Below, piece by piece: positions 9 to 56,950 of a DNA stretch of 64,000 nucleotides (positions are counted from its first letter, which is position 1; every line of letters starts with the position of its first letter). Position numbers and translations under genes: made by a program. The stretch lies in assembly GCA_040285855.1 (NCBI GenBank), contig JAUFOQ010000002.1:2604001-2668000 (forward strand), read 5' to 3'. Under the pieces are notes generated by a model that saw nothing but the letters and a program-made list of their open reading frames with translations, ran no database searches and had not been told where the DNA came from. The DNA is from Eukaryota sp. GEM-RC1 (Eukaryota).

Positions 9-137
9 TGTTGTAGTTGTCGATTTGTGTAATTTCATATTAGGTTTTTATCTTCCCCCTTACATCTTTAGAGGTTCTTCTCCTTATAAAGGTTCTCCTC
101 TTTAAGTATGTACCATTTTAGTGCACAAAGACCAACA
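9..137 (+). repeat. 5' LTR
   Basis: TGTTGTAG...CCAACA; direct repeat of 6043..6171; contains TATAAA. Confidence 0.97.
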
Positions 138-1930: not shown

Positions 1931-1933
1931 GAC

Positions 1934-4777
1934 GTGTTCAGTGATCTGCCACATCCAGATGGCATCGACTGTGAGCCTATGAGAATTCCCTTCGCCGATG
2001 AATCCCGAATAGTAAGCCGTCCGCCTAGGAACCTTAGCCCAGACAAGCTAGAAATTGCCAACAAAGAATTCGATGACCTCCTTAAGAAGAACTTTGCCGT
2101 ACCGAATGAAACTAAGTGGTCCTCTCCTATCTGTTTGGTGACCTACGCTGACAAAGCCCCTAGATTCACCGGTGATTTTAGTGGCAAGAATGGGATCAAC
2201 GACCTCTCACTCACTCTGGAAGCCAATTTACCAAAAATCGCTGACATTCTGCCCGTTCTGTCTAAGGCAAAATATATTGCTACTCTCGACTTACCTAAAG
2301 CCTTCTGGCAAGTCAAACTTCACCCAGATGACGTGAAAAAAGCTTCACTATCCATACCTGGACGTTCAATTTCTTTTACTCGAGCTGCTTTTGGACTGAA
2401 AAATGTCCCAGCTTTCTTTCAAAACTTGATGGTCTCATTCTTCGCCGATGAAGACATTTTTATTTACATCGATGACATAATCGTATGTTCGGAAGACATT
2501 TCAGATCTACTCGCTAAACTCAGGAAAATTCTATTGAAAGCTCGTGACAAACGAGTTAGATTTGGCCTTCGCAAATGTGATTTTATTACTTACAAGAGTA
2601 AAATCGAGATCCTAGGATGCATCTTCCAGAATTTTCAACGTTCGATTAGTCCAGATCGTATCAAAGCTATCTCACTCCCGCGACCAAAGACCTTATCAGA
2701 AGTTCGAAGTTTTGTTGGATCAATTAACTTCATTAGAGACTGGATTCCCAACCTTGCTTCCGTACTAGAACCAATTTCAAATCTGCTAAGAAAAACTAAC
2801 AAGATCATCTGGACCGCCGAAACCGAAACTTGCTTCAGAGAAATTTTGAAACTAATCTCCAGCAACATTCCTTTGAACTTGCCGGACGCCAAAGCTACTA
2901 TTCTGATTTCCACCGATGCCTCCGAAGTAGGCCTTTCCGGAATTATTTGGGAACAAACCGAAGACTGCCCGCCTGGAACCCCTCTTATTGAAAGGAAAAC
3001 CAGACCTCTCTGCTTTTACAGCAAGAAATTCACTGACAGCCAGAAGACCTGGCCCACAATTCAGAAAGAATTATATGCAATTCTCGCCACCCTAACCCTT
3101 TCTTCCTTATCTTCTTTCATTTTAACCAAACGGTTCACTCTATTTTGTGACCACAAAAACTTGTCTTACCTAATTTCAGCTCCTGAGAAGAACAGAATTG
3201 TTACCCGCTGGATCCCCATTTTAGCCAATTTTGAATTCGAATTAGTTCACACCGCCGGTGAAGACAACCACTTCGCTGACTTACTCTCACGCTGTTTCTC
3301 TGAACCTTCCGTCGTTAATTCTAGCATTCTGATGTGTTCGTCTACGGTGCCGGATGCAGTCGAGGGGAGACACATGATGGTGGAGGATAGTAGGTTATCT
3401 TCCCCACAGACTTCTCATCAACTCTCGGGACCTGTTTCAAACAGGGCTTCTGGAGCAACGTTCCAAACGTCGACACAGATGATGCGACAATTTGACAAAG
3501 ATTGTGAAGGACTCAGCCGAGAGGAACAAGTGCAGCTCTTCTGGGATAGAAAAGACGCCTTCATGGAAGCTCACGAACAACAACAGAAGTACATAGACGC
3601 CCTAGAAGCTGAAATCAAAGAATCCACTGACGAACAACTCCGCCTGCAACTGGAAAGAGATGCCGCTGTAGCCCTAGTTGAAGACGAAATAGAAGACCAG
3701 GAATTCCATGATCATTTGAGAGGAAATGGCCTCTTCATTGACGAGGATGGACATATGTGCCAACTGCCCTCCACCGACTCAGATGACGAATTCCGTTTCT
3801 ACATGACTGATATACCAGATCATATAGATCTCAGTAGCTCTGATGAGTCTCCCATCATCATCGTAGATGATGAGCATTCCCCAATGCTTGAAGACCTGCC
3901 ATCGATCGAAGCAATCGGTGCTAGCTACCGCCTTTTCCCGCATTTGATCCGTGACACCGCCGAATTCCTAAAAATCACGAACTCCGCTTCTACCTCTGCT
4001 ATAATTTCAGTCTCTTCAGAAGACGAAGATGACCTGTACGAGCAATTTCTCGGAGAATCGCCCAAGGATACACGGCTCTTCGACGACCTGGGCAATGAAC
4101 TGCCTGGCCCCTGGAACCCACCAATTAATATTAATATCAAGCCTAGAACCGACATTCCACTAGCTCCTCCGAACTTTGACCATGTAGGCATCCACGACAA
4201 CGCTGGATACTACAGCCCTTGTACTGACGCCGCTCACCCCGACGAAGGACCCTTTGATATCATGATTGCCACCCTTGATGACTCCCGAGCCATTGAACCG
4301 GAAATCGACGAGGACAACCTGTTTGCCGAACGGTTAACTATTGACCCCTTGTCCCACAACCCCCTTAGTAGCTCCGACAGTGATCTCCCTGAAGAGACCT
4401 CTTGGACACAGATCCCCGACCCCAGCCATGTGTTCAACGATTGGTTGAAACTACTATCCCAAGAACAAGAACAGGCTACTAAAGATAACGACATTACCAT
4501 GACCACCGACACAGAGATTATCTCCATGACCGCCAATAATAGAAATTTCGCGCTCACTTGGAACCATAGGAAGAAGAAGTTTGTAATTCCTGACTCCTTG
4601 AAACGACACTTGCTTCTGACTATCCACGGATCCACTAGAGCAGGGCACCCATCCAAGAAAGATTCTGTCTCTGCCCTAATGAGAAGCGATTATTGGTGGC
4701 CTAACTACCTTTACGATATGAAGTCCCATGTAAAGAATTGTATTCCATGCCAAAAGACCGCTCCTGCCCGGAACTGA
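1934..4777 (+). CDS. pol: Pol: reverse transcriptase, RNase H, acidic insert, integrase HHCC zinc finger
   Basis: LDLPKAFWQ, FGLKNVP, YIDDII (RT); TDAS, QKELYAI, CDHKNL, NHFADLLSR (RNase H); H..GH..CIPCQ. Confidence 0.93.
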   Translation: MFSDLPHPDGIDCEPMRIPFADESRIVSRPPRNLSPDKLEIANKEFDDLLKKNFAVPNETKWSSPICLVTYADKAPRFTGDFSGKNGINDLSLTLEANLPKIADILPVLSKAKYIATLDLPKAFWQVKLHPDDVKKASLSIPGRSISFTRAAFGLKNVPAFFQNLMVSFFADEDIFIYIDDIIVCSEDISDLLAKLRKILLKARDKRVRFGLRKCDFITYKSKIEILGCIFQNFQRSISPDRIKAISLPRPKTLSEVRSFVGSINFIRDWIPNLASVLEPISNLLRKTNKIIWTAETETCFREILKLISSNIPLNLPDAKATILISTDASEVGLSGIIWEQTEDCPPGTPLIERKTRPLCFYSKKFTDSQKTWPTIQKELYAILATLTLSSLSSFILTKRFTLFCDHKNLSYLISAPEKNRIVTRWIPILANFEFELVHTAGEDNHFADLLSRCFSEPSVVNSSILMCSSTVPDAVEGRHMMVEDSRLSSPQTSHQLSGPVSNRASGATFQTSTQMMRQFDKDCEGLSREEQVQLFWDRKDAFMEAHEQQQKYIDALEAEIKESTDEQLRLQLERDAAVALVEDEIEDQEFHDHLRGNGLFIDEDGHMCQLPSTDSDDEFRFYMTDIPDHIDLSSSDESPIIIVDDEHSPMLEDLPSIEAIGASYRLFPHLIRDTAEFLKITNSASTSAIISVSSEDEDDLYEQFLGESPKDTRLFDDLGNELPGPWNPPININIKPRTDIPLAPPNFDHVGIHDNAGYYSPCTDAAHPDEGPFDIMIATLDDSRAIEPEIDEDNLFAERLTIDPLSHNPLSSSDSDLPEETSWTQIPDPSHVFNDWLKLLSQEQEQATKDNDITMTTDTEIISMTANNRNFALTWNHRKKKFVIPDSLKRHLLLTIHGSTRAGHPSKKDSVSALMRSDYWWPNYLYDMKSHVKNCIPCQKTAPARN

Positions 4778-5598
4778 AGCTTCCTTCCTCTGGAAACCTA
4801 TGGTCAGACCGCCCTTTCCAATGCTTACATGCCGACGTAATTGGTCCGCTCGCCCCAGATTCAGAAGATTACAAATACATCATAGTATTTGTGTGCTCTT
4901 TCTCCAGGTTTTCCATTCTTGTTCCCCTGAAAATCCTCAATGCACAAGAAGTTGCTTACTCCATTCTCTGGAACGTAGTTGGAAACTATGGGATCCCTTC
5001 ACAAATCCTGAGTGACAATGGCCCTGAATTCGCTAATGCCGTCAACAAAAGTTTATGTTTATTTCTTAACATCGAAAAAAAGTTTTCAACTCCCTACTTC
5101 CATCAGTCAAATGGACTAGTAGAAAGAAGACACCGTGAAGTACTTCAAACCCTTCGCCGCCTGCTCATTGACCTCCAAGCCCACTCTAACTGGAGCACAT
5201 ACATACCCATCACCCAACTGAGCCTGAACACCAGAACCAGTTCAATTACTAATTTCACTCCCTTTGAGCTCATCTTTGGTTCGAAAACTGACCCTAGACA
5301 ACTCCCCCTCCAAGTAATCCAGAACTGTACTCTGGATGATCACTTACCGCAGAACTCATATGTTGATGCCTTGAAACAGAAAACTTCAACCATCTTAAAC
5401 AAGTGGAAAGAGGCAGAAAACTCCTCCAATCTCAAGAAAAGATCGCTCTCATCCAGGAACTCCGCCACAAACAAAAAACTCATAGATGACATCCAGCAAG
5501 GAGACTTCGTCTTGAAGCTCAGCGAACATCCCTCGAAGACCCATGGGAAGTGGACTGGTCCATACCTAGTCGAAGATGTCTCCTATCATCCCAAATAA
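4738..5598 (+). CDS. Integrase core (DDE) with GPY/F motif, frameshifted from pol
   Basis: HADVIGP, SDNGPEF, SNGLVERRH, WTGPY. Confidence 0.93.
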   Translation: MYSMPKDRSCPELKLPSSGNLWSDRPFQCLHADVIGPLAPDSEDYKYIIVFVCSFSRFSILVPLKILNAQEVAYSILWNVVGNYGIPSQILSDNGPEFANAVNKSLCLFLNIEKKFSTPYFHQSNGLVERRHREVLQTLRRLLIDLQAHSNWSTYIPITQLSLNTRTSSITNFTPFELIFGSKTDPRQLPLQVIQNCTLDDHLPQNSYVDALKQKTSTILNKWKEAENSSNLKKRSLSSRNSATNKKLIDDIQQGDFVLKLSEHPSKTHGKWTGPYLVEDVSYHPK

Positions 5599-6001
5599 TC
5601 TTATCACAGGTATCTCAGTAAGATGCTCCCTCTACCACGTCAAGAAGTGCCACACGAACCACTCCGAGAACGTGCTACAAGCCTATGCTGCTACTGATTC
5701 AGAAGAAGTTGTCATCGACAAGCTTATCGACCACGACTTGACCTCCCCGCAAGATCCTAAGTACCTAGTCCGCTGGCTGGATGGTACTACCACCTGGGAA
5801 GGTCGCTCAGTAGAGAATACCGCCGCCTACTATGCTTACCGCAGGAAGTACATTGATGAACCTCCTCAAGCTAGAGGTCCCGCAACTGCCCGTGCTAACT
5901 CTAAACTAGACGCTGCTTGGAAAGCCCAACACCATAAGTCCGCCCCTGTTGTAGCTCGAAATCAGCATCGTATGAAAACAAGAAATCGTATATCTCACTA
6001 G
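5576..6001 (+). CDS. Integrase C-terminal chromodomain
   Basis: VIDKLIDH...KYLVRWLDGTTTWE chromodomain pattern. Confidence 0.75.
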   Translation: MSPIIPNNLITGISVRCSLYHVKKCHTNHSENVLQAYAATDSEEVVIDKLIDHDLTSPQDPKYLVRWLDGTTTWEGRSVENTAAYYAYRRKYIDEPPQARGPATARANSKLDAAWKAQHHKSAPVVARNQHRMKTRNRISH

Positions 6002-6027
6002 TTTATTTATAATATGAATTACCCAAT

Positions 6028-6042
6028 AAGAAGAAAAGGCAG
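6028..6042 (+). other. Polypurine tract
   Basis: AAGAAGAAAAGGCAG immediately upstream of the 3' LTR. Confidence 0.85.
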
Positions 6043-6171
6043 TGTTGTAGTTGTAGATTTGTGTAATTTCATATTAGGTTTTTATCTTCCCCCTTACATC
6101 TTTAGAGGTTCTTCTCCTTATAAAGGTTCTCCTCTTTAAGTATGTATCATTTTAGTGCACAAAGACCAACA
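6043..6171 (+). repeat. 3' LTR
   Basis: 127/129 identical to the 5' LTR. Confidence 0.97.
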
Positions 6172-6820
6172 CAAAGAATTAAAATTACGAGATAATTCGA
6201 GAGTTAGTTCAGGCGGTAAACCACGTAAAAAGTGATTAACTTTACCACCAAAACAAACTTGAAGCATAGCAAAAGAAACTTGTTTGCCTACATCTAGATC
6301 AACGATTTGGTTAAGCTGCTGAAAGATACAATTATTCTTATGTGATAAAGTCTCCTTAATTTTGTCATCATTACCAATATAATTGCCCAAAAACTTGACA
6401 CATTCATCTGAATAATTGACAAATGGAATGGAAGATTCCCCAAAAATCAAATCAACTGAAGAACGTCCAATAACAAGACATTTCTGAAAATTAATTGACA
6501 AACCAATACTTGAAGACAATTCAACAAAACGAGGAAAACTCGATTTAATGACTTCCAAAGGGCCAACCAAAGAGGTATCATCAGCATACGAGTTTAATTT
6601 TAAACCTGGGAATTCGCTTGAGAATTTGCGAAGAATTCTTTGCAACGGCAAACAGAAAAGAAAAGGACCCAAAGGATCACCTTGTTTCACACCACGAGTG
6701 GATGAAATTGTATGTTCGTGAAAAATTAAAGAAGATGAATGATCATACATAATTTCAAAATAGGACAGTAATTCAGGAAACTGATCTAACAGTTCCAAGT
6801 GAATCTGTGAAATAAATACA
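6172..6820 (-). mobile_element. CRE-like non-LTR retrotransposon RT fragment interrupted by the gypsy element
   Basis: GVKQGDPLGPFLFCL, YADD, KFLG. Joining across the TSD restores FNSLR, as in the paralog at 16436. Confidence 0.88.
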
Positions 6821-7282
6821 CCAATCCACCGATTATTGTTCAAATTAGTTCAAATCTGAATAACAGAGTTGAAATCCTACAAGCAATGAATCTACTAATA
6901 ACTTTAAAGCAAATTTATTAATTAAGAACCACAGCTTTGTGACACAAATGCTATATACTGTATAATGTTTAAATTAGACAACTCATAAATACAATTTAAT
7001 TGAGATCACTCACATAACTTTGCAATACTACGAGTTTACCGACAGAAACAACTTCTTGGTTTCGTACTGTTTAACTACACCAATTGGCGCGGAGTTGTTT
7101 TCAAGATAATGTTGATTTAATACTTAGATGAATTATTGAAAAGGAAAAATTAGCAGATGATAAACCTAGATCAAACCACTTACAGTATGTCCAGTACTGT
7201 TATTGTAGAGGTAGTTCAACATTACAGACACAATTTTATATTGTACAACTTGATTTTGGTGTTGCCAAAATCAGAAAAGTCA

Positions 7283-16099: not shown

Positions 16100-17730
16100 T
16101 TGAGTAAAGATTGTTGCTGATGATGCTTCTTTAGTTGAATCTATTGATGATATATTATCAGCCTTTCCAGTATTTATAGAGCTTTTTAATGAGATTGGTC
16201 TTCAGTTGAATTATGAAAAATGTTTTCTGATAGGTTTTTCTCCTTTTGAGTTCATTGTTGAAGGGCATACTATTCCGTTTTGCAATTATAGTGTCGATGC
16301 AATTAAGTTTTTGGGTACTTTCATTGGCAATGGCGATCAAAATTTCCTGAAGTTGGATAATTCATTGGGAAAAATTTCTGTAAAGCTTAAACAAATTGGT
16401 CAGCTGAAAATTGGTAAGCATATTTTTTTTCCCTTTTGACGTCGTGTTTTGCGTCCAAAATCCATCACTTTCTGTGCCCAATCAATACTGAACTTACTAT
16501 TGATTTAGCCAGAAAATTTAACTCTTTGAGAACTAAGTTCTTAAGTGATCTTGTAGAGGTTAATGACTCGAAATTGCCTTATCACGCGTTTTCATCAGCT
16601 AATTTTGGCGGTGTGGGTTTTTCACGAGCTTCATACTTAACCAAAAGTGCGTTTATTGGTGGAATGAAGAATTTTCTATATGAATTTAAATCCAGATACG
16701 GCTTTTTGTTTAATGAAAATCTCATTCATTCTACTCCTTGGCTAAGTTCACTAGTCTCAGTTATTGACAATTTGGATTTGGATATTTGGAACAGCTGTTT
16801 TACTTCTCATTTACCCAGTGTTCCTGAAAAATGTCCATTGTCTCTCCCTTTATGTGTGGTCAAACTTCAGAATAAGCTGTTGAAGGCATTTGAAAACCTG
16901 GATTTTGAAAATCGTTTTTGTGTTACTAAAATGAATAATCCCGTCTTTGCTGCTTTCTTCAATGATATTAAGAATTCAACTTGTTTGATCACTCAACAAC
17001 CACGTCCTTTTGGTTTGCATTTGTCTGATGAGGCGTGGAAATTAAATATGCGATTGCGTTTAGGTTTGTTTCCAGCAGTATTGCTGAAAAATTCTGCATT
17101 CGTTTGTAGTCATCGTCGTAATGCAACTTTTAGACATGTAATTAATTGCCCCAAATTTATTCAATTTGATTCTGTTCTTCATAATGCTTTCAGAGATGTT
17201 ACATTTGAAATGTTTAAAGCTCATGGATTTCATACCAAAGTTGAACCTTTATTTAGTAAGTTGGGTCTTGATATAATTAATAATTCTCGTCGAGGTGACT
17301 TACATGGTCCTTTTGTTGATTCTAGTCAATTTATCCTTGATGTTACAACAGTAGATTTATGTGCGCAAACTAATGTTAATGGCTTAAATTCGGAAAGGTT
17401 TCAATCACCTAGAAACAGCTGAAAAACGGAAAATTGATTTGTAATCCAAAGATGTTGCTAAACTCAATCAAAATTTATATTCAAAATTTATATTTGTTGC
17501 ATTTGCTATTTCTATTTTTGTAGTGTTGGTGAAATGGCTTCCAAAGTTTTTAACTGATTTTGGATCTATGTGTAAGTCTCAGAATATGAGATTTAACTGA
17601 TCAATTTGGCATAACCGTTTGATTTTTTCTGTGTTCCGTTCGGTGCCTAAGTTTTTTAAATCAATTTTCACAAAGTTGTATAAAAACTGTGGAACTGTTG
17701 ACCAGGAATTGTCGGTGTCTAGTGTTTCAT
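16100..17730 (+). mobile_element. 5'-truncated CRE-like non-LTR retrotransposon (RT end, Zn knuckle, RLE endonuclease)
   Basis: ADDASL, KFLG, ANFGGVG, MRLRLG, HVINC, RRGDL...ILDVTTVD. Confidence 0.85.
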
Positions 17731-22291: not shown

Positions 22292-22588
22292 GAGCGAGGG
22301 TTGAAATCGAATCTAAAATAAGAAGGATGCGTTTCTGAAATCTTGACGTACATCTGTAGATGTTACTGAAGAAGAACCAAGTCCAACTACTGTATTTGTA
22401 CCCCATATATTTGTGCACTCATATTTGTCTGGACTAAAATGCTATTCAATCCAATGTATACACTTTCATGACGCAATGACAACAGTCATATTTCAAGATT
22501 GTAGTACAGTAATTCACAAGCACTGGATCGTATGTAAATAGTTAACACCAGAAATCCGTTCTTCAAAAACAGGAAATTTTGCCTGCAC

Positions 22589-25500
22589 ATGACAGAACCC
22601 TTCATAGATGTAATCTCCAAACTTCGTCAAATGCGTCAGTCTCAGTCTTTGCGTACAAACTTGTTCAACTCACCTCTAAACAAGAATGCTGTCTCCACTA
22701 ATTCATCTTACAAATTAATACGTCAACATGACTCAAATTCAGAACTGATCCACACTAATGAAGAGGATTACTCCAGTAACAGAACTACGTCCTTGACATC
22801 GACAAGTCCTGAAGCACACTTCCAATCATCAACTGACTCTAATCCATATGCGATCTCTAAAGTGGTACCAGCCAAGTATTCCAGCATTTTCCCCTTTCCA
22901 TCCTTTAATGAAGTCCAAAACACATGTTTTGATAAGCTCTTCAACACAGATGAAAACGTTGTTGTTTCAGCACCTACTGGTATCGTTCTTGCTCTAATTC
23001 ACTAACCACAGGTACAGGAAAAACCACTCTTTTCGAATTTGGAATCCTAAGACTTCTCAACAACTATAGTCCATCATCAATCCGGTGTGTCTACGTTGCT
23101 CCTATCAAAGCACTTTGTCAGGAGCGTGTTGCAGATTGGAAAAAAAGTTTTCTAAATTCAATCTTAAAGTATCTGAAGTAACAGGAGATGCTGGTGAAGA
23201 TTCTGATGCCACCACAAGCTCACTCATCGTTACTACTCCTGAAAAGATTGACTTTGTTACCAGAAGATTGCGTGGAGCTGCTTTCCACAACATTCAGCTT
23301 GTCATTATCGATGAAGTGCACCACTTGAACGAACAAAAAAGAGGACCAGTGTTGGAAGCAGTTGTTTCTAGATTGAAGCTTAATGCCTCCCCCAGGTTCA
23401 TTGCAGCATCTGCTACTATCCCCAACTGCCATGAAGTTGGTAGATGGCTTGGAGCAACTGCTGATTCTGTGTTTGAGTTTGGGGAGCAATATCGTCCAGT
23501 ATGTGTACAACTTCAAGCTAACTCCAGGTTCCTCTAGAAAAAGTCGTGATTGGAGTTCCATCGAAGAATAACAATGTGTTTGTATTTGACAAATTTCTTG
23601 ATTACAAACTATTTGATTTAATATCCAAGTATTCACCATCTAGGCCTGTTTTAATCTTCTGTTCTACTAGAAAAAGTGCTCAATCCGCCGCCACAAAGTT
23701 AATGAATGATTCACACGATTACTTTGTTTCAACTGCTACAAAGTCCCGTTTACAAACCCTAGCGAACTCAGTCCAAGACAAACACTTGAGTACTGTGTTC
23801 ACAAGTGGTATTGCCAGTCATTCAGCTGCACTTTCTCCGTCTGACAGAACTGCTGTTGAATCAGCCTTTTTGGAAGGTGTTATACGAGTGGTGTGTGCAA
23901 CATCTACTCTGAGTATTGGTATGTCAAATCATCTTATCATCTCATTACAGGTGTTAATCTCCCAGCTTACTGTGTGATTGTTAAAGGAACTCAGTTCTAT
24001 TCCCCAGGTTCAGGAGGTCAAACTGATTACTCTTCATTACAAATACTACAAATGATTGGAAGAGCTGGCCGACAACAGTATGTATAGAATCACGTCATGT
24101 TTAATTGTAGGTTTGACACAGATGCAGTGTCAATTATTCTGACAACACCGGATAAGTACAACCAATTTTCAAAACTAACTTCTGGAAATGAAATAGTTGA
24201 TTCTCAACTTTCTGATTATTTAACTGAACATTTAAATGCCGAAATTGCTGCCGGAATCATTACTCATAAAGAAGCCGCTTTCCAATGGGTAAAGTCAACA
24301 TTTTACTATCAACGACTTCTAAGTAGTAATGATGACGAGATCAATTCAATCGATCTAATGATTGACCGTGAAATCGAAAAACTGATTGAGGCTGGTTTGG
24401 TGTCACACTCTGATGGTCAGTTTATGGCTACGGAACTCGGTAAAATCGCTTCCAGGCAGTATATTTCTTTCCCTACTGTTTCAGCATGTCTTGGTTTATC
24501 AGAGACGGCAACAATCCATGAGCTATTACTACTATTGGCTGACTCTGATGAAATGAATGGGCATATTCTTAGAAACAATGAAAAGAAAGATTTGAATGCA
24601 ATTGTGGACAGAGATTTCGTTATATTTAAACCAGAAAAACCGAAAGTTCGGAGTACCGCTGAGAAGATCCTTGTTCTAATGCAGTGTGTAGCTAAAAGTC
24701 ACCAATTTGAAGCTTGGTCACTTAGACAAGATGGGCAAATAATTGTCCAAAAAATGGTAAAACTATTGAAAACAATTGCTGAACTATTCTTGGTTCAGTC
24801 AAAAACCTTTCCACAACGATTCCGACTCCTTTGTGAGCTCTACTCGGTGCTTAAAGGAGTTGATCGCCTCGTTTGGCCTCCCAAGAACACGGAATCCACC
24901 ACAACTGTGTGTGAATTACGACAATTGCAAGGTGTTGGGCCTGCTATATCATCATTATTAAATACTTCTGGAATTTTCACTCTTCAACAAGTAGCAGAAT
25001 CTGATCCTCGAAGACTTGAATTTATAACCAACAGAAATTCACCATTTGGTACTAAGCTAGTAGACGCAGCAAAGGTGTCCCGTCATTTGATCTCAAAGTG
25101 ACTAGGACTAATAGGCAAGTTGCCAATCATCAGACGGAAATTATGATTGAAGTTGTATTACATAATAAGATGTCAAAAAGTTTACTCATGATTGCGGATC
25201 GGGAAAGTAATCTCATTAATTGGAAATGGATCTCTGGAAGACAAAATCAAAAAATTGAGGAAAAAATCATCATTTCTTTATCGCCATCTACATATTCTTT
25301 AAAGATATGTGTAATTAATCAAGAGTGGGCAAACGTTGATAAGCAAATTATATTTGATGTACGTTCAAACACCACGCAACTCATGCCTTTTGCCATTGAC
25401 TTAGATGATACTACCACTAAGAATGTCTCCAAAACCAATTCCAGATCAGGAAAGACTTGTGCTCATAGATGTAAGGACAAAAGCAAGTGTCGGCATTCCT

Positions 25501-26015
25501 GTTGTAAGGTGGGACTACCCACAACAATACCAGAGGAGGACGATGACTTTGAATTTGACTTGAGTAAATCCCCAACACCGCCACCAAAGCCCAATCCTAA
25601 AGTGGAGGTAAGAGCAAGTCCTAAAGAAGAAAGACCAGTTAAAAAGGCAAGGATTGAACACAAAGAAGTGGAGATTCCACCATCTCCTTACAAAATCATT
25701 CAACAAAACAAGGCAAAACCTATATCAGAAATACAGAGACCGCAAACGAGTGCCTTGAAACTTCCAATGTCGAAAATGAAAACATCGAATACTAGCAAAC
25801 CGCTAATTAAAGGATTGTCTTTTGGGAAAAACAAACTAACAAGTAATTCTTTAAATTTAAATAATTTAAATAGTTCAAGATTGGAACAAAAAGTGACAAC
25901 AACTCCGATAAGAACAAAATTGTTAAATAATTCACCAATTATTCAAAGAACAGTGAAGGTAGATCAAATTTCAAGTAGAAACCCCATTATCTTACCCAGC
26001 ATTGATGACTTTTAA
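22589..26015 (+). CDS. HFM1: Meiotic DExH helicase MER3/HFM1 (Ski2-like, Sec63, C-terminal Zn finger)
   Basis: [52 protein letters not shown]. Introns 22980..23011, 23499..23527, 23919..23950 and 24078..24110. Homopolymer frameshifts near 23140 and 25072. Confidence 0.88.
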
Positions 26016-30318: not shown

Positions 30319-30539
30319 ATTTCAATTTTATTGAATCGTTATAATAAAATTTATTTCTAAGCATTTATTTATTGGAATACTACAGTATTTGATTGCAGGC
30401 TTGCTTTGAAATGATCACCTTCTGTCAACAAATGATGATAATCAACATGATTGATGATTGTTTCAATTATAATTGAGTAGTAAGTTGCCAAAGTAAACAT
30501 TAAACTCTCACTGTGGTTCTCAACTCAAATGGATATTCC

Positions 30540-30639
30540 CAAAGTACACAACTTTGTTAATTTTCATTTTGATTAGAGTATCGAAACCACAGACACTCAG
30601 TGAGCTAAGCCCACTTCGCTATGTACCGTTAAAAGTACA
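30540..30639 (-). ncRNA. Candidate Fanzor omegaRNA scaffold
   Basis: Three closely spaced hairpins directly after the Fanzor stop (30622..30639, 30599..30615, 30576..30598) and a fourth at 30540..30556. Confidence 0.55.
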
Positions 30640-32400
30640 CTAAAGTTCTTTACGAGAGACCTTCGTCTGCTGGACTGACTTTACGCTTCTTCTTTTAGGC
30701 GAACTCATTTCTTTTGGTGGATTCTTGCATGACCTTTTGTTATGACCTTCTTGGCCACAATTTCCACATGTATTATTCTTTCCTGTTGAAGTTTTGTTCT
30801 TTCCTGTTGAAGTTTTCTTCTTTCTGGTCGCAGTCTTCTTCTTCTTCTGGTCTCTCGCCAAAGTATCCTTACCACTCTCGAGATCTGTTGTTTGAGTTTT
30901 AGGTCTCTCGAGAGCGGATGGCCTACCTTGACCATTGATCGTTGCTTCAATGATGGAATAGATATTAATGGCAGAATTTAGGTCTCTATTCCAAAAAGTA
31001 CCACACTCAGCATCTGAGCACCTTACCAGTCCCCAGGGTGTGGATTTAGCTTCTTCTTCCAATGACTTCTGCTTCACCTCCCACTCTGCTTCCAAAATCC
31101 CGTTGGTTTAGAGGATCTTGTTTGTTTTTAAGCAAAATTTCTCTTCTTAACTTTCTCTTCTTCCTTCTTAGCTGTTTCTTACCTTTTGGACCAAGAACCT
31201 TTAGTTCTGAAACATTTTCACATTCTACGAAAGTTGATTTTTCCTTAGCACATTTGGAACAACACTTGCTTGTTCTGTATTCATCAACAAGAAATATTTG
31301 GTATCCATATCTTCTTAACATTCTACGGATTTCCACTGCTCTAACAGTAGAGGTTTTACCCTTTCTTGTTTTACCTTTTGAGCTCCAATCCCCATAGCCA
31401 ATGACAACGTCTTCTGGAGGTCCATATGTTAAATTGAAGCGTTCCAGCATGTTTTTCTCCGAACGTTGGTTATTTGAATAAATCTGGAATTTCCTTTTTC
31501 TAAACCAGTCATCTTCGTAAAAAGAACTCAAATATACGTTATATCGTTCGGCTTCTTTAATATATGTTCCAAATGTGTCACTGAAACACGACTTTCTTTC
31601 CCCATTTGATACAGCATTGGAGAATTGGTTAACGACATCTCTTCCTGTTACAAGTATCTCGTTAGGATTGGCAACCAAAAAATCTTGAAGTTGAGTTTCA
31701 TCTGGCAATTCTGAAGGAAAATCTGGAAGTTCATCAGTAAGAGTTTGCTCTTGTGAATCAACAGAAAAATCTCTGCGTTGCCTTTCAGTGACAGTTTCAT
31801 CTGGTGATTCGATAGAAAATTCTTTCAGTTTTCTATTTTCAGATTTACGATATTTTTTAGATTTCCTATCATAAGCTCTTTCTCCCGCTGTGTAATTAAA
31901 CTTCTTCCATTTGTGCTTAGCCTTTTTCTTTGATTTTTTTATCATTATTGGAATTTTTCCAATCTTGTAACTGTTTCTTTCTTTTTTTAATTCCTCCTCT
32001 TTTCTTACTTCTGATTTCTGAGGGTAATCGTTTTTTGAGTGGATTATTTTCAGAAATATCTTCTTTTTAGCTCATCGACTGTCTTTTCTGAAACACAATA
32101 CATTAAATCATATTCATTTGGATCAATACCGACAATTCTTTTTTCTTTCAATTGTAATTCGTGAATATTCTCATTTGATAAAGAGTGAATGTATCTTTCC
32201 GAAGTTCCAAGAGATTTAGCAGTAAAATCTTTGAAGGTATTTCCATCTTCATCAACCAAATCTTTTCTCATTAAAACCAAACTACAAGAAATTCCATCTG
32301 TCAGAATTGAAGAATATCTAAAGACAAATGATTTTGTTGGTGCCACAGCTTTGTCAGTAAGGACCTGATCAAAGACCTTTTTTCTTATTTCATCTGCATT
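30640..32400 (-). pseudogene. Fanzor (eukaryotic TnpB-family RNA-guided endonuclease); 5' truncated and frameshifted as assembled
   Basis: SILTDGISCS, RuvC-I GIDPNE, VIGYGDWS, RuvC-II LVDEYRTSKCCSKC, VRCSDAEC, RuvC-III WNRDLNSAINI across ORFs 32050..32346, 31046..31945 and 30640..31095. Confidence 0.9.
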
Positions 32401-32887
32401 TTATGAAACTCTCAGCATTTTCTGGAATGATGCGTACAAAAGAATGGATGAAGATGAATTGTGATTTATTAACATCGTCATTTTGTGAAGTAAGAAAAGT
32501 GTAGATCGAACTAACATTGAAATTCAGGAACAGTATATTGAAATATATTCAAATTCAAACGACCTTACCGAGGTAAAGGTCACTTAAGGTAACAAATTGG
32601 TCTCCATGTTTGAAGAACCGTAAGCAAAGATACCTTGAGAAAATTCTTTTGTAAAGAGACAGAATTAGCTAATGTAAGTAGTACCAGAACAATTTGTAAT
32701 TGTAAGATGATTCAAACCAGTATTGGTACAATGGGATTACTCATGACAAAAGTGAACAGTGCAATAACATCTAAAACTCTGAAAAAGAAGCTACTTCCGA
32801 GATACACAACAACAATATGTTCTACAATCAGAACTTGTTTTCAAAACTAACTCAATGAAACATGGATGGTTTATCAGTTCCATCATC

Positions 32888-42835: not shown

Positions 42836-45800
42836 TTAAATAAAGTCCAGCATCAATTCAAACATATCCATACTATTAGTCTCAATTTCTGTCGTCAACA
42901 TGAAATTCGCGGCAGTTTCTTCAACAAATGGCATTGTACTCAACATCTTTGGAGATCCCACAATAAACTGTGGTCTGAAACCATTGATAGCTATTCCACC
43001 CCTAACGACCATATTCATAACTTCACACTCATTCTCAGCATCAAGACCTCTGTTAGCTTCATCCAAGATTCTGACTGGACATGAAGCAATTGACTGAAGA
43101 GACAGTAGAAAGATTAACACAGCTAGCGAACGCTCACCTCCCTGACTGACGAGCGTTGTTTAATTCAGCTAAAGGAGCTCCAGCTCTGAATGAACATTTG
43201 ATGGAGAGTTTAGCATTAGAAGCAAAGGTGGTTTCAGGAATTTCCAGAGTAATGGTACCATTAATTCCTAATTGAGTAAAATGATGGGAAAACGTTCTTG
43301 AAAGTTCTTCATAAAAAGGTTCAATAAGACTTTGAAAGAGTGCACGTTTCTCAGTAAAGGCTACGTATTGGGCTTGAAGTTGGGCCTGTTCTCCTTCGAT
43401 TTCTCGTTCTAAATCCTTCAGAACTGCTGATTTCTTCTGATATTCTCTGATTTGGGAGGGTGACACGTCAGCAATTGCTCTCAAATGAGCATCAGCTCGT
43501 TGTATAGAAGCTTCAACTTCCACTAAATCATCTGTTAACTCCCCCAGCAACTGCTCAATGGGTTCATCAGGGTAAGAATCACAAAAGGCTTGATGATGCT
43601 CTTGAAAGGACGTATGAGCGTGTCGAAACGACTGTTTACACCGTTGGATAGCTTTCTTGGTGTTTTCAATCTCAGCTGTCAATGAATGAATATGATGATC
43701 TAAAGTCCTTAATTCCTCAGCCACTGACCTATTCTTAGCGTCTAACTCTAATATCTTCTCATTGATCTGCTCCATTTTAACTCGAAGCAATGTGTGTTGT
43801 TCAATCAACTCATTGACTTCCAATGTCTTTTGTTCGACTAATTGATCCAATGGTCTGAGCTCTTCTTCGACTCTTTCAAGGTCTTTAACTGGAGCTTCAG
43901 TCAAGGAAGAGAGGAAACGTTGGATGGCAGAGATTTGGGTAGGGATGGTTTGATGAAGTTTAATTAAATTGATAATTTCGCGTCGTTTTTCGTTTAATTG
44001 AGACATATCATCTTGCGTCTCTGTAAACAATTCTCGTCGTTTTTGCAGTAAGAGCCTCTTTTCCTCACGCAAAGTTTCAAGTTCATCATGAACACTTGAT
44101 TCTTCAGCTCTAAGCTTGTCCAATTGAGCTTGCTGTTGCTCGTCTGCTACTTTAAACAATCTCTCCTTTTGCGCAATACTTGAACTTATAGTAGATATCC
44201 CTGCAGAATATCTACTGTGAGAAAACGAGATTTGTTCGTCTCTGCTGAACATTCTAGTGAAGTTCTTATGTCTACGGCCAAAGAATTGATCATCATCGAT
44301 TAACTTAAGAATTCTAGAATTACCTATAGCAAATCTATTAAGGTCTGAAAAATCCAACAATGGACACAGAATCTCAGCTGGGGCATCAAAGACATCAATT
44401 CCATAACAATAGATGGCTTGACTTCTCTGAAATTCTTGAGAAGCAGTGGGAAAATTTGTAGGGATTGAATCACGGAAGTTTTGAAGCTGATTCAAACCAC
44501 ATCTCAAAATTTTAAATCGTAAATTACTACGATCAGCCAATCCTTTCAATACCGATTCATCTTCATTAGACGTCACAAAAAAAGCTGTCTTAAACGACAT
44601 ATCCAAAGCATTCTCCATTGCATTACAAATATCATCAAACACTCCATCATTAATCTCCCCCTTGAATTAAAGGCGAAACTCTTGAGAAAAGCTTTTGTTT
44701 AGAGAATGAGGCCTCAACAAACATGGGACCAAAGACTTTCCCTTTAAAAGAGCTCTGATTGCGGTCAATAATGTCTCTCAACTGGAGTGCTTTTGATAAA
44801 GGACTGTTTTGTCGTCGAATTCGATCCAGCTGTTGAGCATCTTTGCCATCACATTCACGTATTTTTTCCTTGATTCCGTTGAGCTGACCTTGTTTCCTAT
44901 TCAGAGAGCGTTCGAGTATGTCTATTTCTTCCTTTGATTGTTTCCTGTCACTTTCATACTTGTCAATAGCTTCAGTCAGTTGATCCCTAACAGGAATTAG
45001 ATCTTCTAGAGGTTCTAGAGAGTGAAGTTGTTCTTCTAGCTCACGTTTCTTAGCAATTTTAGCACTCTTTTCATTATCGATTTGGCGTATTTTGCCTTTT
45101 AACTCATCCCTCTTCTGCTGTAAATGCTGCTTCCTTCTATTAACTTCTGACATTTCACGCTCCATTCGAATCTTCTTATCACCAACCTGTTTAAGCTGCA
45201 CAGAGCATTCATTTCTACTTTCAACTAACTTTGCCTTCTTCCTCTGAGTATCACTTGATTTGCTCTTCTTCTCATACTCCTTCTTAACTGTCTCTAGACG
45301 TTGGCCAAGTTCAATAACAAGAGCTTCTCCTTGGGTGATGTCTCGTTGGGTTTTTTCTCTAGTGAGTTGCATGCATCTTATACGTAGTAACTGTTGTTTT
45401 CTTTTCCAAATTTCTTTGTTATGAAAGCGTTCTACTGCTGCTTCTAGAGGAGCGATTTCATCTTTAAGATTGGTGACGTCACCCATTTTAGAGTCAAGAG
45501 AAGTCTTGCTACTCGTGAGTGATCCTTCTAAATTGACCAATTGATCATAAAATTCTACAGCACTAATTGAGCCAGAATCTGCCTCAACATCCACAACATT
45601 TGTCCTTTCGACCTCATCTTCGCTCGATATCACTTCGATGTCCCTTCTTGGACGAGTCAGTCTCCGTTTACTCGTATGACGTCGTTGTCTAGAAGCAGGA
45701 GACAGTGGAGAAGGTAGTACAAGGGGAGGTAGAAGTTGTAGAGTCTCGTGGAAAAGCTCTTTAGGACTCTTCTTAGTCAGTTCTTCCATCTTAAACTGGG

Positions 45801-46272
45801 GAGTGAACTGAATGAGAGAGGACAGGTCAATTTTAAGGTTGTCTAAAACGGAGTAGAGGTGAGATCGTTTGGTGAGTTTCTTTCCATCAAAAGAGCAAAT
45901 GAAAGTTCTGGGTTTGTTAGGATTAAGTTGTCTGTGGACTCGAATGTATGAGCCTTTGCCGTTGGAGAGAAAAACTGTGATTTCAGCGGGATGGGGGGAA
46001 TTGTTGGATACATAGTCCATTTCTGAAGAGTTGCGTCCAATTTGAGTGGGGGTAAGGCCCAGGCAGAGACCAATGGCATCTAAGACTGAGCTTTTGCCGG
46101 AACCGTTGCTGCCAAGAACCCATGTAGAGGAGGAGCCGAAGATAATGGTGATGGGTTTGTTGTGCTTTCCATTACACACAGTAAAATTACGGAGTTGTAC
46201 AGCCAATATGGAGCCGGCATGATAGTCATTAAGGTCCACAAGATTGAGGGCTTGACATGCCAGTGGATGCAT
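42836..46272 (-). CDS. SMC5: Structural maintenance of chromosomes protein 5
   Basis: Walker A GSNGSGKSS, IQFTPQ, hinge VFGP, signature QSG(G)ERS, Walker B ILDEANRGLDAENE; G-run frameshifts near 44660 and 43141. Confidence 0.88.
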
Positions 46273-49110: not shown

Positions 49111-49270
49111 TACTCTTAAGTGATTTATTGATACTAATTATGAATGTCCAGTGAAACAGCACCAAACAATAATTACTCTGATTCAGACTAATTACTGATT
49201 CAGAGTAATTAATGACCGGAAAAATTAGTCTGAATCAGAGTAATTATGAATATTCATATTTAGTCTGAAC
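49111..49270. mobile_element. Degenerate left end of a Tc1/mariner-type element
   Basis: ACTAATTATGAATGTCCAGTGAAA...CCAAACAATAATT shared with 56854..56950; AATTAGTCTGA(A/T)TCAGA palindromes. Confidence 0.6.
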
Positions 49271-49599
49271 AAATATCTTAAACAAAAGGAATTCCTTGAC
49301 CATAAATTGTTGTTTTGTCTTCACAAATGTTACATTGAACACCACGATCGTTGTTGGTACCGTCAATGGTTGTTTTAGACCGAGGAACTACAGAAACTGG
49401 ACTGGTCTGCTATTAGATTGCCTCTTCAAAATTGATTAGTAACCGAATTGTCCTTCAAGCAAGTGTGAACAGTGTGGGACGAGGTTTGTATACGTCAATT
49501 CAAACAGTGTCTAGAGAAAAAATGAAAAAAATGGACTGTTTAATACCATTTTACTGAAATATATTTTTAATTTGATATTTGTTTATGGAACAAAAACAC

Positions 49600-51909
49600 T
49601 AAGATAAACACAAATACTAGAACTCAATACCATTAAAGCAACAATCATTACCATTAAAACTCACATCAGCTTTTTCTTCATAAAAAACACTGAGAGCTAA
49701 TAGAGCTTTTGAAATCATGATAGGAATTGTTTTAAATATTGTAAAAACAATACGATTCAACCAAAATTGAAATCAAATTTCTTGTTCATTCTTTTTTTGA
49801 CCACTTTCTCAAAACCAGAGAGAAAACAAAGAGCATCTCTACCAAGTCGACCATAAATTGAAATTGCAAAAGGGCATAATTTGTACTCAACATGTCTAAT
49901 ATGTTTGAGAGCAGTCAATGGTTCATCATATTTGTTTCTCTTGTACTGTTCTGAAGAATTTAGTGGAGAAACTTCATTTTTAGCATCCTTGAATGCACTT
50001 TTTTTTGCAAACATCCACAGTAATCACATCAACAACCGTTAGTTCATCATTGACTGATGGAACTATGACATCAGCTCTTCTTTTACCAAAAGTCTTATAA
50101 GAATCACTATTTTTTTAATTATTGATTTCCAGTGATCTCAACAGTGGCTCAACGAAAGATTCGATTTTGTAGGACTTACACATGGTATGAATTTGATCTC
50201 TGACAGCATCATGAGTACAAGTTCTATAAGTAATGAAACGATTGCAACTCAAAAGGTGAGAAAAAGTAACTAATTTACCACATTTACATTGAAGATCATT
50301 AGGTAAATTAGAGGGCCACAAGAAACATCGAAGTCTGAATGTTGTAGTCCATTGATGATCTTTCAACAACAAACCATAAATCTGAGGAATTTGGTTAATG
50401 AAAGCAACAAAAGAACTTTCCTTCAAATCGATTAAAAAATTTGCGAACGCTGGATTTTTTTCTTTGGCCGAGCCAAGTCGAATGTTAAAATCCAAACATT
50501 TAAAATGTTTTAAAAAAGTGTTTTTGGAGTTTCTTAAGAGCGAATTTTAAAGAGGTGACACATCGATCTGGTATTTCACAAATATCCGCTGGAAAACAAG
50601 TTTGCCAGAGGTCAGGAGAAATTAGCGACAATTCTGATCTGAAATTTACCAAGGAAAAACTACTGGTTGAAACAAGAAGATTTTCTTGACTTGGGTAACG
50701 TCTACAGAACTCAAAGACAAAACTCTTACCACCACCAATGAAAGCAGATTTGGTCCACCATTTAGACGAAGTGAAACCAATACCACCAAGATGAGAATCT
50801 GAGAAGATGTTTGTTCAATGCAGGAGCATCCACTGATAACAAAAATGCAAGAAAGTCAGTACGAATTTTGTTAAAGCTTCTACAGAAGTTATAGGTAAGT
50901 ACAGGGGGTAGAGAGCGAAGCAGATGAGTAACTTATCATGAATAGCAAATTTTTAGCATGAAGAATTTGAGATGTTTTTCCAATTGCCATTCCTTAATTT
51001 GATCTAATTCTTCTCGCATTGAATCCAAATATACATTCAGATCTTTAACAATGTTGTCATGTGAACCAAGAAAGCAACCTAGAAATCTAAAGCTTGAAGA
51101 TAAGTAGTTCACAAAGGGAACCTCTAAAGAATTAACAATTAAAGTTACAGGTACCTTCTAGTTGGCAATCAAAAACATTTTTGCACATTTAATTGAAGTC
51201 CAATTGCATCGTACAAATGAGCAGCCTGATTCGCAATAATACGAAGAGTTGACATAGGAGCAATAAACGAAATGTCATCCATATAAGCTACAATTTCTAA
51301 GTCTGCATGTTCTACTGTGAGTTTTTTCATGATTGGACGAATAACGAAACAAAGAAAGAAGGGACCAAGAGGATCTCCTTGTTTAACACCAGAAACAGAA
51401 TTAAGAGCAAATGAATTAAAAGCCAAGTCAGAAGAGTGACCATAAAAACAATGAAAAAGGTTCCTAATTCTGAAAAACTCTTTTCCAATTCAGAACAAAT
51501 GGCAGATCGTTTAACAGAATTAAAAGCATTCTTAAAATCCAAATTGAAAATGCAATTATTTTCAACTGCATTGGAGAAAACATCAAAAGAAAGGGCAGCC
51601 ACAGAAGCTCCATCAATGGTCTTAATACCATGTTGGTAAGGTGAAAAAAATCCTTGGCTTTGTTGGAAATTCTTCCAAAGACAACAGAAGCAAACAGACG
51701 ATAAATAGCTTCACCGACAGCAATAGGACGGATTTTCATATTAGGCATAATCAGTGCAACCAATCGAGAAGCAGACAACTCTTTAGGGGGAACAACCTTC
51801 GATAACAAAACATTGTTGAAAATGAGACATAAATCTTCAACAATAAGTGAATTTTGACGTGAAACAGAATTGAGCATAACTGAAATATGTTGAACATTCC
51901 TAAAGTGAT
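49600..51909 (-). mobile_element. Degenerate CRE-like non-LTR retrotransposon (RT, Zn knuckle, RLE)
   Basis: IRPIAVGEAIYRL, LDFKNAFNSV, GVKQGDPLGP, YMDD, CKCG...HLLSC, HDAVRD, PFAISIYGRLG. Confidence 0.9.
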
Positions 51910-51970
51910 CAAACAATAATTAGTCTGATTCAGACTCATAAGTGATTCAGACTAATTGTTGTGAAGAGTG
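51910..51970. mobile_element. Right end of a Tc1/mariner-type element
   Basis: ...CAGACTAATTGTTGTGAAGAGTG followed by TA; reverse complement of the end at 56854. Confidence 0.75.
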
Positions 51971-52049
51971 TAGCATTAGTACATGTAGTAGTACTACTAG
52001 AAGTACTACACTGTACATCTGGGGTTCTCAAAATTCGTGCACGGGGGGG

Positions 52050-53482: not shown

Positions 53483-54659
53483 TAGGGCTGTCAATTTCTC
53501 CCATTTCTCCCAACTCCCACCCAACTCCCATCTCCCATGACCCTTGGGAGTGGGAGTGGGAGCTTCAGTAGCAATTTTTGGGAGTGGGAGTGGGAGTGGG
53601 AGCTCTCCGTTGGGAGGTGGGAACTCCCAAAATCTCCCATCTCCCATTTACAGACACAACTCTAACTTCAATTTAAAACAGAAACAAGCTAGCTAGACAA
53701 ATACAGTTATAATTTTTCTAGAATATTAATAGGACTAGGTGTATTACATTTTTACTGTCTTTGTTTTGTTTTATTTATTTTCGTTTTATAAAGAGCGTGG
53801 TTGTTTATCTGTAAATTTCAACCAATGTCATCGCTTGATTTATCTGAAGATCCTGAAAACTCTGGTCTGTTTAAACATCCTGATTTTATTGAATTTGTTT
53901 CCTCTCTTTCAGTTTCAAAATTCCAAAAAGAACCACGATAAGAAATGATATGTTGAATGTTTATGAGTCATTTAAAGGATACTTGATAGATAAATTCAAA
54001 AATGTGTGTAATTCTTCTAAAGTATCTATTAGGATTGATAGATGGACATCGAATACAAACAAGCATTTTAATGGGGTAACAGTTCACTGTATTGAAGACT
54101 GGAATTTAAACATTTACAATGTACGTCCACGGTTTTAAGCACTTGAAAGAAAACCACACTGCCATCAACATTGCCGATGCTGTGGAAGAAATTATTACTG
54201 AATTTGGTTTAAAATACAAAATGTGTTGTGTTTCAACAGGTATTCACGACTATCCGCATACATTGTATGCTAAGAACTTTATGACAACACAAGCCTCATC
54301 AGTTCCAAGTGAACAGTTATTTTCTCAGGCAGGGTGTGTTGTTACGAAGTTACGAGCTTCCTTGAGTAGTGATTCTATTGAAGTAGTCCTTTGTTTGAAA
54401 TCATGGTTCAAAGGTCGGGAGATGAGAGAGTTGTTCATGAATCAGAGATAGAGTTAGTGATTGTTATGTTTATAAAGTAAAGTGTCATTGTACTAGAAGA
54501 TACAAAAATGGGAGTTGGGTGGGAGTTGGGAGAATTTGTTGGGAGTTGGGAGTTGGGTGGGAGTGGGAGTCTCACCTATGACAAGTGGGAGGTGGGAGTG
54601 GTAGTGGGAGAACACGTGTTGGGAGTGGGAGAAACTCCCATCTCCCATTAACAGCCCTA
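53483..54659 (+). mobile_element. Internally deleted hAT transposon (1177 bp)
   Basis: TIR TAGGGCTGT/ACAGCCCTA. Perfect 8-bp TSD GTTCTATT. Subterminal GGGAG(T) repeats. Transposase remnants IDRWTS, ENHTA, ASSVPSEQLFSQAG..R.SL...IE..LCLKSW. Confidence 0.95.
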
Positions 54660-56425: not shown

Positions 56426-56853
56426 CGTCAAGTTTTAATATTATTCACCAATATAACAGACTTTTAGACTTTTAAATAAACTGATGTGCGTTCGTTCAAT
56501 CATGTGATTCATGGTCTTCTTTTGTACTGTTGACATTGTGCTGAAATCGCGTTCATTGAGTGAAACACTGTTGATTAGACTAAGTGTGACAATTGCAGTG
56601 TTGCGCCATAACCAAAAATAAATTTGCCACTGATGTTATGGATGTTGGCACCGTCAATTGTTGTTTTAGACCGAGGAATTGATAAATCAATTAATTCATT
56701 GATTTATCATAAACCTAGTTTTTAAGTCTGATACTAGTATGTAGTGGTGGTTAAACTGTTTGGAAAAATCTAATTATAGAAGCAAGACAATTCTGTTTAC
56801 CAAAAACGCTATTACTGAAGCAGCTGTCAATCAAAATATTCGCACAACAATCT

Positions 56854-56950
56854 ACACTCTTCACAACAATTAGTCGGAATCAGACTAATTATGAATGTCC
56901 AGTGAAATGGTACCAAACAATAATTAGTCTGATTCAGACTAATTACTGAC
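56854..56950. mobile_element. Solo left end of a Tc1/mariner-type element
   Basis: TA|CACTCTTCACAACAATTAGTC...; contains AATTAGTCTGATTCAGACTAATT. Confidence 0.7.

Follow-up and report, generated by a model that had tools for sequence, protein, structure and literature searches.

Fanzor1 nucleases and their omega-RNAs are already established. The class is recognised by a RuvC D-E-D triad with an alternative glutamate six residues before the zinc finger (PMC13565253, PMC10530073) and by a TDG motif in the WED domain (PMC10711439); in SpuFz1, the RuvC-I motif contains D-x-N (D383/N385; PMC10432273). PMC11423790 reports that Fanzor1 requires REC and WED for TAM recognition and REC for guide binding, and that the three solved omega-RNAs are 75-150 nt long with a 7-bp first stem, while a three-stem shape is described in PMC10711439. 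DNA is cut 14-21 nt from the TAM, and ghost or partial Spu-1 loci provide omega-RNA although they make no protein (PMC10432273). For the Fanzor1 elements CRe-1/2/3 of Chlamydomonas reinhardtii, the passages of PMC3627910 on these elements describe 5'-truncated copies with target-site duplications (TSDs) of 7-19 bp after a fixed tetranucleotide, and full-length copies without TSDs; separate DEDDh nucleases are presented there as accessory genes of P and piggyBac elements. The homing experiments listed in the pertinent part of a 2026 review concern only prokaryotic TnpB and IscB (PMC13565253).

The locus described here lies in a window of 64,000 nt, the whole stretch of DNA that was analysed, from Eukaryota sp. 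GEM-RC1. It is a truncated remnant and not a complete nuclease. Our preferred reading, to which we give slightly more credence than doubt, is that it represents a 1,892-bp copy, truncated at the front and enclosed by 12-bp direct repeats, of a multi-copy Fanzor1 element. In this reading, the copy likely yields no active nuclease and likely continues to encode an omega-RNA; its most probable origin is the aborted homing-type repair of a Fanzor-made cut. The window is gene-dense and eukaryotic, with short GT-AG introns, and the genes on either side of the locus encode Tau95 and an S9 peptidase. A search with the middle open reading frame (ORF) retrieved 14 proteins, including 10 from Eukaryota sp. 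GEM-RC1, one from TZLM1-RC and one from TZLM3-RCL (NCBI names). GEM-RC and TZLM3-RCL belong to Skoliomonas, anaerobic free-living metamonads, and the assemblies of the named relatives are Nanopore-based (PMC11316075). Eleven gene models and one further protein are 87-98% identical to the read-through translation of the window copy, so that the family is multi-copy and young. A sister subfamily comprises 13 records and an RCL subfamily 12. The relatives were drawn from a set of 191 fetched proteins (P numbers below), which included the best 150 of 1,110 matches from one search. No second copy or ghost end was found elsewhere in the window (2 matches versus 0.98 expected). A metagenome locus scan with the middle ORF yielded 135 pattern matches and no confirmed relative, and scans of viral contigs confirmed neither the single match obtained with P0037 nor any of the 62 obtained with the exonuclease alignment. 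A weak match of P0037 and P0031 at 33563-33402 (E 0.004-0.02) overlaps the Tau95 gene in a different frame and was rejected as chance.

The coding sequence lies on the minus strand in four pieces, not in the three consecutive ORFs counted in the earlier note; the motifs which that note had listed were all recovered, far beyond chance, and their positions were read in the sequence. Piece 1 (32068..32402) contains the end of the WED domain with TDG (32301-32293) and RuvC-I with GIDPN (32130-32116). It is 96.6% identical to P0043 over 88 aa and begins mid-protein, at residue 383 of P0043 and residue 713 of P0037. Piece 2 (31939..32066), between breaks 1 and 2, carries a basic insertion after RuvC-I in the third frame. 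This frame is 91.7% identical to the sister proteins P0006/P0042 over 48 aa (32066-31923), and because the sister proteins match it, the listed middle ORF is out of frame over approximately its first 45 residues. Piece 3 (31094..31930) comprises a helical region, an acidic insertion of about 29 aa that is common to P0042 (about 31779-31693), GYGDWS (31399-31382), RuvC-II with the start of the zinc ribbon (DEYRTSKCCSKC, 31285-31250), and a basic insertion within the zinc ribbon. Piece 4 (30640..31089), after break 3, holds the second zinc pair, RuvC-III and a basic tail of 113 aa, and the motifs CSDAEC (31020-31003) and WNRDLNSAINI (RuvC-III, 30993-30961) were read there. The tail includes a CCHC zinc knuckle (30768-30727) that is common to ten relatives, and the stop codon is at 30642-30640. 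This knuckle, the direct repeat and the structured 3' RNA were all absent from the earlier note.

The three acidic RuvC residues are present (in GIDPN, DEYRTSKC and WNRD), as had been claimed. The RuvC-II glutamate in DEYRTS stands six residues ahead of the first zinc pair; counted in the printed alignments, it aligns with E541 of SpuFz1 and the aspartate of WNRD with D606, while GIDPN carries D-x-N as do D383/N385 of SpuFz1. The locus thus has both the D-E-D triad with the alternative glutamate and TDG in WED. The assignment to Fanzor1, and the match to Fanzor profiles or structures that the earlier note had proposed to look for, were borne out by the PDB search with the middle ORF, where the only three matches at E<=1 were SpuFz1 (1.1e-8), PpFz1 (8.3e-8) and GtFz1 (0.0058), all Fanzor1. 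NCBIfam returned nothing for the three window ORFs. With piece 1 alone, surface-layer proteins (E 2e-4) ranked above SpuFz1 (E 0.27); these proteins are unrelated and the matches were taken as chance. The long insertions proposed after RuvC-I and within the zinc ribbon are reflected in the spacings. The distance from the RuvC-I aspartate to TS is 280 residues in the X-bridged read-through, versus a median of 172 in 45 relatives outside the family, and the two zinc pairs are separated by 76 residues, versus a median of 31 in 50 relatives. Because of the insertions, the locus falls outside the Bao-Jurka spacing D-X(125,275)-TS; the distances are 241 in P0024, 254 in P0037 and 281 in P0047.

Three frame breaks were located from the sister proteins at about 32066, 31935 (A7 run at 31940) and 31092. 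The third lies between the two zinc pairs, and the idea that the C-terminal half might be intact does not hold for the sequence as assembled. All three breaks are likely assembly errors. Similar breaks that are not introns occur in short runs of two host genes, an SMC-family gene and the S9 peptidase gene, which makes such an origin plausible for the Fanzor breaks. The SMC-family gene (43090-46272, minus strand), which presumably resembles SMC5, has two breaks at G-runs, one of them within the ATPase signature, which we take to be QSGGE, and the S9 peptidase gene has one intron-free break at an A-run. The broken SMC-family gene is a marker of assembly indels left uncorrected. Introns were rejected as the cause of the Fanzor breaks, as the sister proteins are continuous, offset by single codons, and the breaks cannot be matched to short GT-AG introns; the helicase gene in the window, unlike the Fanzor locus, has real short introns. 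At break 3, P0052 shifts like the window copy, and P0007 and P0010-P0012 pass via another frame. In the sister subfamily, four of six records shift at the matching A-run and two read through. These patterns are suggestive only, because the records are gene models, some with predicted introns.

Fanzor homology ends at 32402, and the copy lacks some 700 residues at its N-terminus, with the REC lobe among them. The read-through corresponds to residues 713-1146 of P0037 (1,182 aa), and the 96.6% identity to P0043 holds from codon 32400 on, with nothing upstream. The lost segment corresponds, in alignments, to the REC region of the solved Fanzor1 proteins, and the locus lacks the REC1/REC2 lobe and the N-terminal part of WED. 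None of the 191 fetched proteins, among them the best 150 of the 1,110 matches, gave a family match wholly upstream of the junction, and an exonuclease profile matched nowhere in the window. The earlier note had seen neither an N-terminal REC region nor an associated transposase upstream of about 32400. The former is accounted for by a genuine truncation, which lies at 32402 and is bordered by a direct repeat; a transposase ORF was not recognised beside the locus. Because the REC lobe is absent and is needed for TAM and guide binding, the copy should be inactive whatever the breaks. The usable nuclease locus implied at the outset is not supported: even with the breaks mended, the protein would start at residue 713 of P0037 without REC, and the copy would likely be unable to cut DNA. 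The fallback reading, a dead relic, fits this copy with its N-terminal truncation and lost REC.

The left copy of the 12-bp direct repeat, a candidate TSD, is located at 32403..32414 (minus strand) and abuts the start of the homology. The right copy (30499..30510, minus strand) is identical at 11 of 12 positions and would constitute the first 12 nt of the guide; the insert between the two copies is 1,892 bp long. Among 3000 random 12-mers from the window, three matched the 321-nt right region with at most one mismatch; when six registers of slack were allowed, the frequency was 4/1000. Two further matches to the repeat with at most one mismatch occur elsewhere in the window. Removal of the insert restores a stop-free host frame of about 90 codons on the minus strand, composed of 44 codons on the left (32415..32548) and 42 codons on the right (30369..30498), in phase across the repeat; among 5000 shuffles, 29 contained any stop-free frame of this length. 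Three separate signals, namely the repeat, the reconstituted host frame and the RNA stem, agree on the same two ends. Pfam recognised no family in either half of the interrupted frame (32415-32860 and 30369-30498, minus strand), which is possibly a small or decayed lineage-specific gene. A Fanzor-like resemblance of the host frame before the junction was discarded, as the repeat marks that sequence as target DNA. No terminal inverted repeat of at least 9 nt was detected at the truncated copy and no poly(A) or simple-repeat tail at 30511, and the bases preceding the left repeat are not T-rich. An identical 7-mer is found before the left repeat (32421-32415) and at the start of the insert (32402-32396), both on the minus strand; it may be a trace of microhomology or of template switching.

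At the 3' end of the element, a candidate omega-RNA scaffold of 132 nt with three stem-loops was predicted at 30511..30642 (minus strand). Its first stem has 7 pairs, and its last stem closes on base 30511, the final base before the repeat. The fold scored z -4.10 (0/200 shuffles) within bounds that were set after the repeat had been seen; fixed sliding windows over the region reached only about z -3.1, and 6 of 247 background windows had z<-3. Rfam gave five weak matches, none near its gathering score. A second structure, a strong hairpin in the coding tail just past the canonical Fanzor1 end (30859..30930, minus strand; z -6.1 and z -5.25), folds more strongly than the candidate omega-RNA and could belong to a longer RNA. 

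Full-length relatives from Skoliomonas-type metamonads (1,182-1,473 aa) consist of a PolB-type 3'-5' exonuclease fused to Fanzor1. Exonuclease and RuvC core occur together in 7 of the 191 fetched proteins, which include the best 150 of the 1,110 matches; RuvC matches of at least 550 aa were found in 107 of the 191, and 100 of these have no exonuclease. The search profiles for both domains were built from family members. Pfam PF03104 scored above its cut-off in all seven fused proteins. All seven fall into a 16-row clade that also holds the window copy (SH-aLRT 99), in a quick tree of 81 rows chosen for an intact core motif plus either 550 aa or the family label. The motifs of DEDDy exonucleases are D-x-E (Exo I), N-x3-D (Exo II) and Y-x3-D (Exo III). 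Five of the seven proteins (P0001, P0024, P0027, P0029 and P0047) have kept all three; P0025 starts after Exo I, and P0037, the fused protein nearest to the window copy, has lost the exonuclease motifs. In P0024, P0027, P0029 and P0047, the exonuclease motifs and the RuvC triad are encoded in a single frame. For the subfamily of the window copy itself, the position in the tree suggests an exonuclease, and this can only be inferred because no full-length protein of that subfamily was found.

Structure comparison placed both parts of the fusion. The exonuclease part of the relatives matches Pol delta and other family-B polymerases (fold match E 8e-8); the ESM Atlas score was 0.94. The model of the exonuclease was poor (pLDDT 56.8), and in the joint model of P0024 the exonuclease was left unfolded. 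When the P0024 model was compared with the PDB using Foldseek, all seven chains at E<=0.001 were Fanzor1 (E 3e-16 to 3e-11). The VIA Z scores were 16.4-21.8 for Fanzor1 versus at most 12.7 for all others, with the best value for PpFz1 (Z 21.8, rmsd 4.5, 567 residues aligned); the aligned counts within residues 1-466 are unreliable because these residues are mostly below pLDDT 50. The P0024 model thus has the whole Fanzor1 fold, including REC. Membership in the Fanzor2/IS607 type was rejected, as Mimivirus Fanzor2 gave E 0.18 and Z 9.8, compared with Z 16-22 for Fanzor1. A 2A-like motif near the N-terminus, defined as D(V/I)ExNPGP following the abstract of a 2A/StopGo study, is present in P0001, P0027, P0047 and P0126 (4 of the 191 fetched proteins, including the best 150 of 1,110 matches) and absent from the window; in these four relatives it is a candidate ribosome-skip peptide. 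In P0126 and P0068, a degenerate exonuclease is preceded by a region that resembles the cysteine protease Ulp1; in P0126 this region (PF02902, 21.9 bits versus a cut-off of 20.7) lies between the 2A-like motif and the exonuclease. A literature search turned up neither a fusion of a PolB-type exonuclease with Fanzor nor any Fanzor from a metamonad, and the word 'exonuclease' occurs 0 times in the main texts of PMC3627910, PMC10432273, PMC10530073, PMC11423790, PMC10711439 and PMC13565253; supplements could list fusions. The domain layout was thus not found described and appears to be new.

The most likely origin of the copy, inferred from this one locus, is an interrupted homing-type repair. 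With a guide that starts at 30510, the target would be the empty site, and the TAM would directly precede 32414 on its 5' side. An intact family member, together with an omega-RNA whose guide equals the right flank, would have cut this site at a distance of about 14-21 nt downstream from the TAM. The distal end would then have invaded an occupied copy, with synthesis entering the element from its right end and halting after 1.9 kb, and the new strand would have been end-joined to the TAM-side end still bearing about 12 nt of target. This would leave the 3' end intact, the 5' end lost, and a duplication from TAM+1 to the trimmed cut. The repeat of 12 bp is shorter than the published cut distances, so that trimming must be assumed. 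Speculatively, the fused exonuclease, where active, might trim the 3' ends of the cut and thereby hinder clean re-ligation.

Truncation of the 5' end together with a TSD of variable length is also the usual product of target-primed reverse transcription. A co-resident non-LTR retrotransposon might have copied the RNA of the element from its 3' end and stopped early, which we regard as possible, if on balance unlikely. The window does contain a non-LTR reverse transcriptase remnant (RVT_1 at 6139-6849), and the 2A-like motifs in four relatives point the same way, since among retroelements such motifs occur mostly in non-LTR-like elements, according to 10.64898/2026.09.24.754024. However, the lack of a tail at 30511 argues against it, and the insert stops precisely where the last predicted stem closes and carries no donor flank, whereas Fanzor transcripts extend 14-15 nt into the flank (PMC10432273). 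One-ended, Helitron-like transposition, with a transposase acting in trans that placed the 3' end and with repair resolving the 5' junction, appears improbable. In its favour, the element ends in a hairpin, and the same bias towards the 3' end in the Chlamydomonas CRe elements was interpreted by Bao and Jurka as rolling-circle replication starting at that end (PMC3627910). Against it, the Helitrons in that study leave no TSD by themselves, neither a Helitron-type nor any other transposase ORF could be recognised beside the locus, and a terminal inverted repeat of at least 9 nt is lacking. That the repeat reflects chance or misassembly, and the locus an intact or simply eroded Fanzor gene, is very improbable. 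Uncorrected indels in host genes and the Nanopore basis of the relatives' assemblies would be in favour of an artefact, but the repeat, the host frame and the RNA stem concur on two ends.

The window also contains other mobile elements. An LTR retroelement (9-6171) has 129-bp repeats (9-137 and 6043-6171) that are 98.5% identical, suggesting a recent insertion, and encloses reverse transcriptase, RNase H and integrase zinc-binding domains. Decayed fragments of non-LTR type were found at 6136-6849 (Pfam RVT_1), 16104-17422 and 50115-51919, the last two by eye. Short palindromic dispersed repeats (49133-49400, 51910-51973 and 56640-56950), a remnant of a hAT dimerisation domain (54110-54448, within 53500-54654) and a segment at 53501 with a strong predicted fold (z -5.9) are probably MITE or hAT ends. 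The helicase gene (22538-26015, plus strand) has several introns of about 30 nt and presumably resembles MER3/HFM1; if this is correct, it is a meiotic gene and bears on whether homing between homologues can occur.

The repeat predicts the right end of the family, its omega-RNA, its guide and the position of its TAM. If many truncated copies showed a duplication from TAM+1, this would represent genomic evidence for homing by eukaryotic Fanzors in vivo. The full-length relatives extend Fanzors to free-living metamonads, and P0024, P0027 and P0029 are, by their motifs, candidate natural nucleases that would be guided by RNA and would also trim the ends they create; engineered nuclease-exonuclease fusions exist, and their layout is similar. 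More broadly, a skoliomonad two-nuclease Fanzor can be envisaged, in which an RNA-guided endonuclease and an active 3'-5' exonuclease, released from a leader by the 2A-like peptide, would need no transposase of their own to spread, since they would cut empty sites and trim the resulting ends; truncated copies such as the present one would be homing scars that keep supplying new guides. We put this picture forward tentatively and consider it rather unlikely in its full form.

Compared with the described systems, the locus resembles the Fanzor1 nucleases SpuFz1 (8GKH), PpFz1 (9CF0) and GtFz1 (9CER) in TDG, in the D-P-N of RuvC-I and in the RD of RuvC-III (PMC10432273, PMC11423790), in the position of the RuvC-II glutamate, six residues ahead of the zinc ribbon, and in a predicted structured RNA directly after the stop codon; its relative P0024 matches them over the whole fold. 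In contrast to them, the locus lacks REC, half of WED and the inverted repeats. The family differs from Fanzor1 as described by its N-terminal PolB-type exonuclease, by about 70-110 extra residues after RuvC-I and about 45 in the zinc ribbon, and by a full length of about 1,182-1,473 aa versus 590-726 residues in the solved chains, and some subfamilies, unlike the solved proteins, have a C-terminal CCHC knuckle. Only the relatives resemble the exonuclease of family-B DNA polymerases (PF03104; Pol delta, 3IAY), in Pfam, in fold and, in five of seven, in the three Exo motifs, but Fanzor and not a polymerase domain follows the exonuclease; the window itself lacks the exonuclease domain, which has degenerated in the sister subfamily. 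Like CRe-1/2/3, the locus is 3'-intact, 5'-truncated and flanked by a short duplication. The CRe ends resemble Helitron2 ends and follow TTTT, whereas no Helitron link was found for the locus, and the description of CRe in PMC3627910 reports no fused exonuclease. The locus is also like the ghost or partial Spu-1 loci, which are dead as protein genes and have kept the 3' RNA region, but ghost Spu-1 loci keep both inverted repeats (PMC10432273), whereas the locus has lost its left end, and the copy should therefore not move by cut-and-paste.
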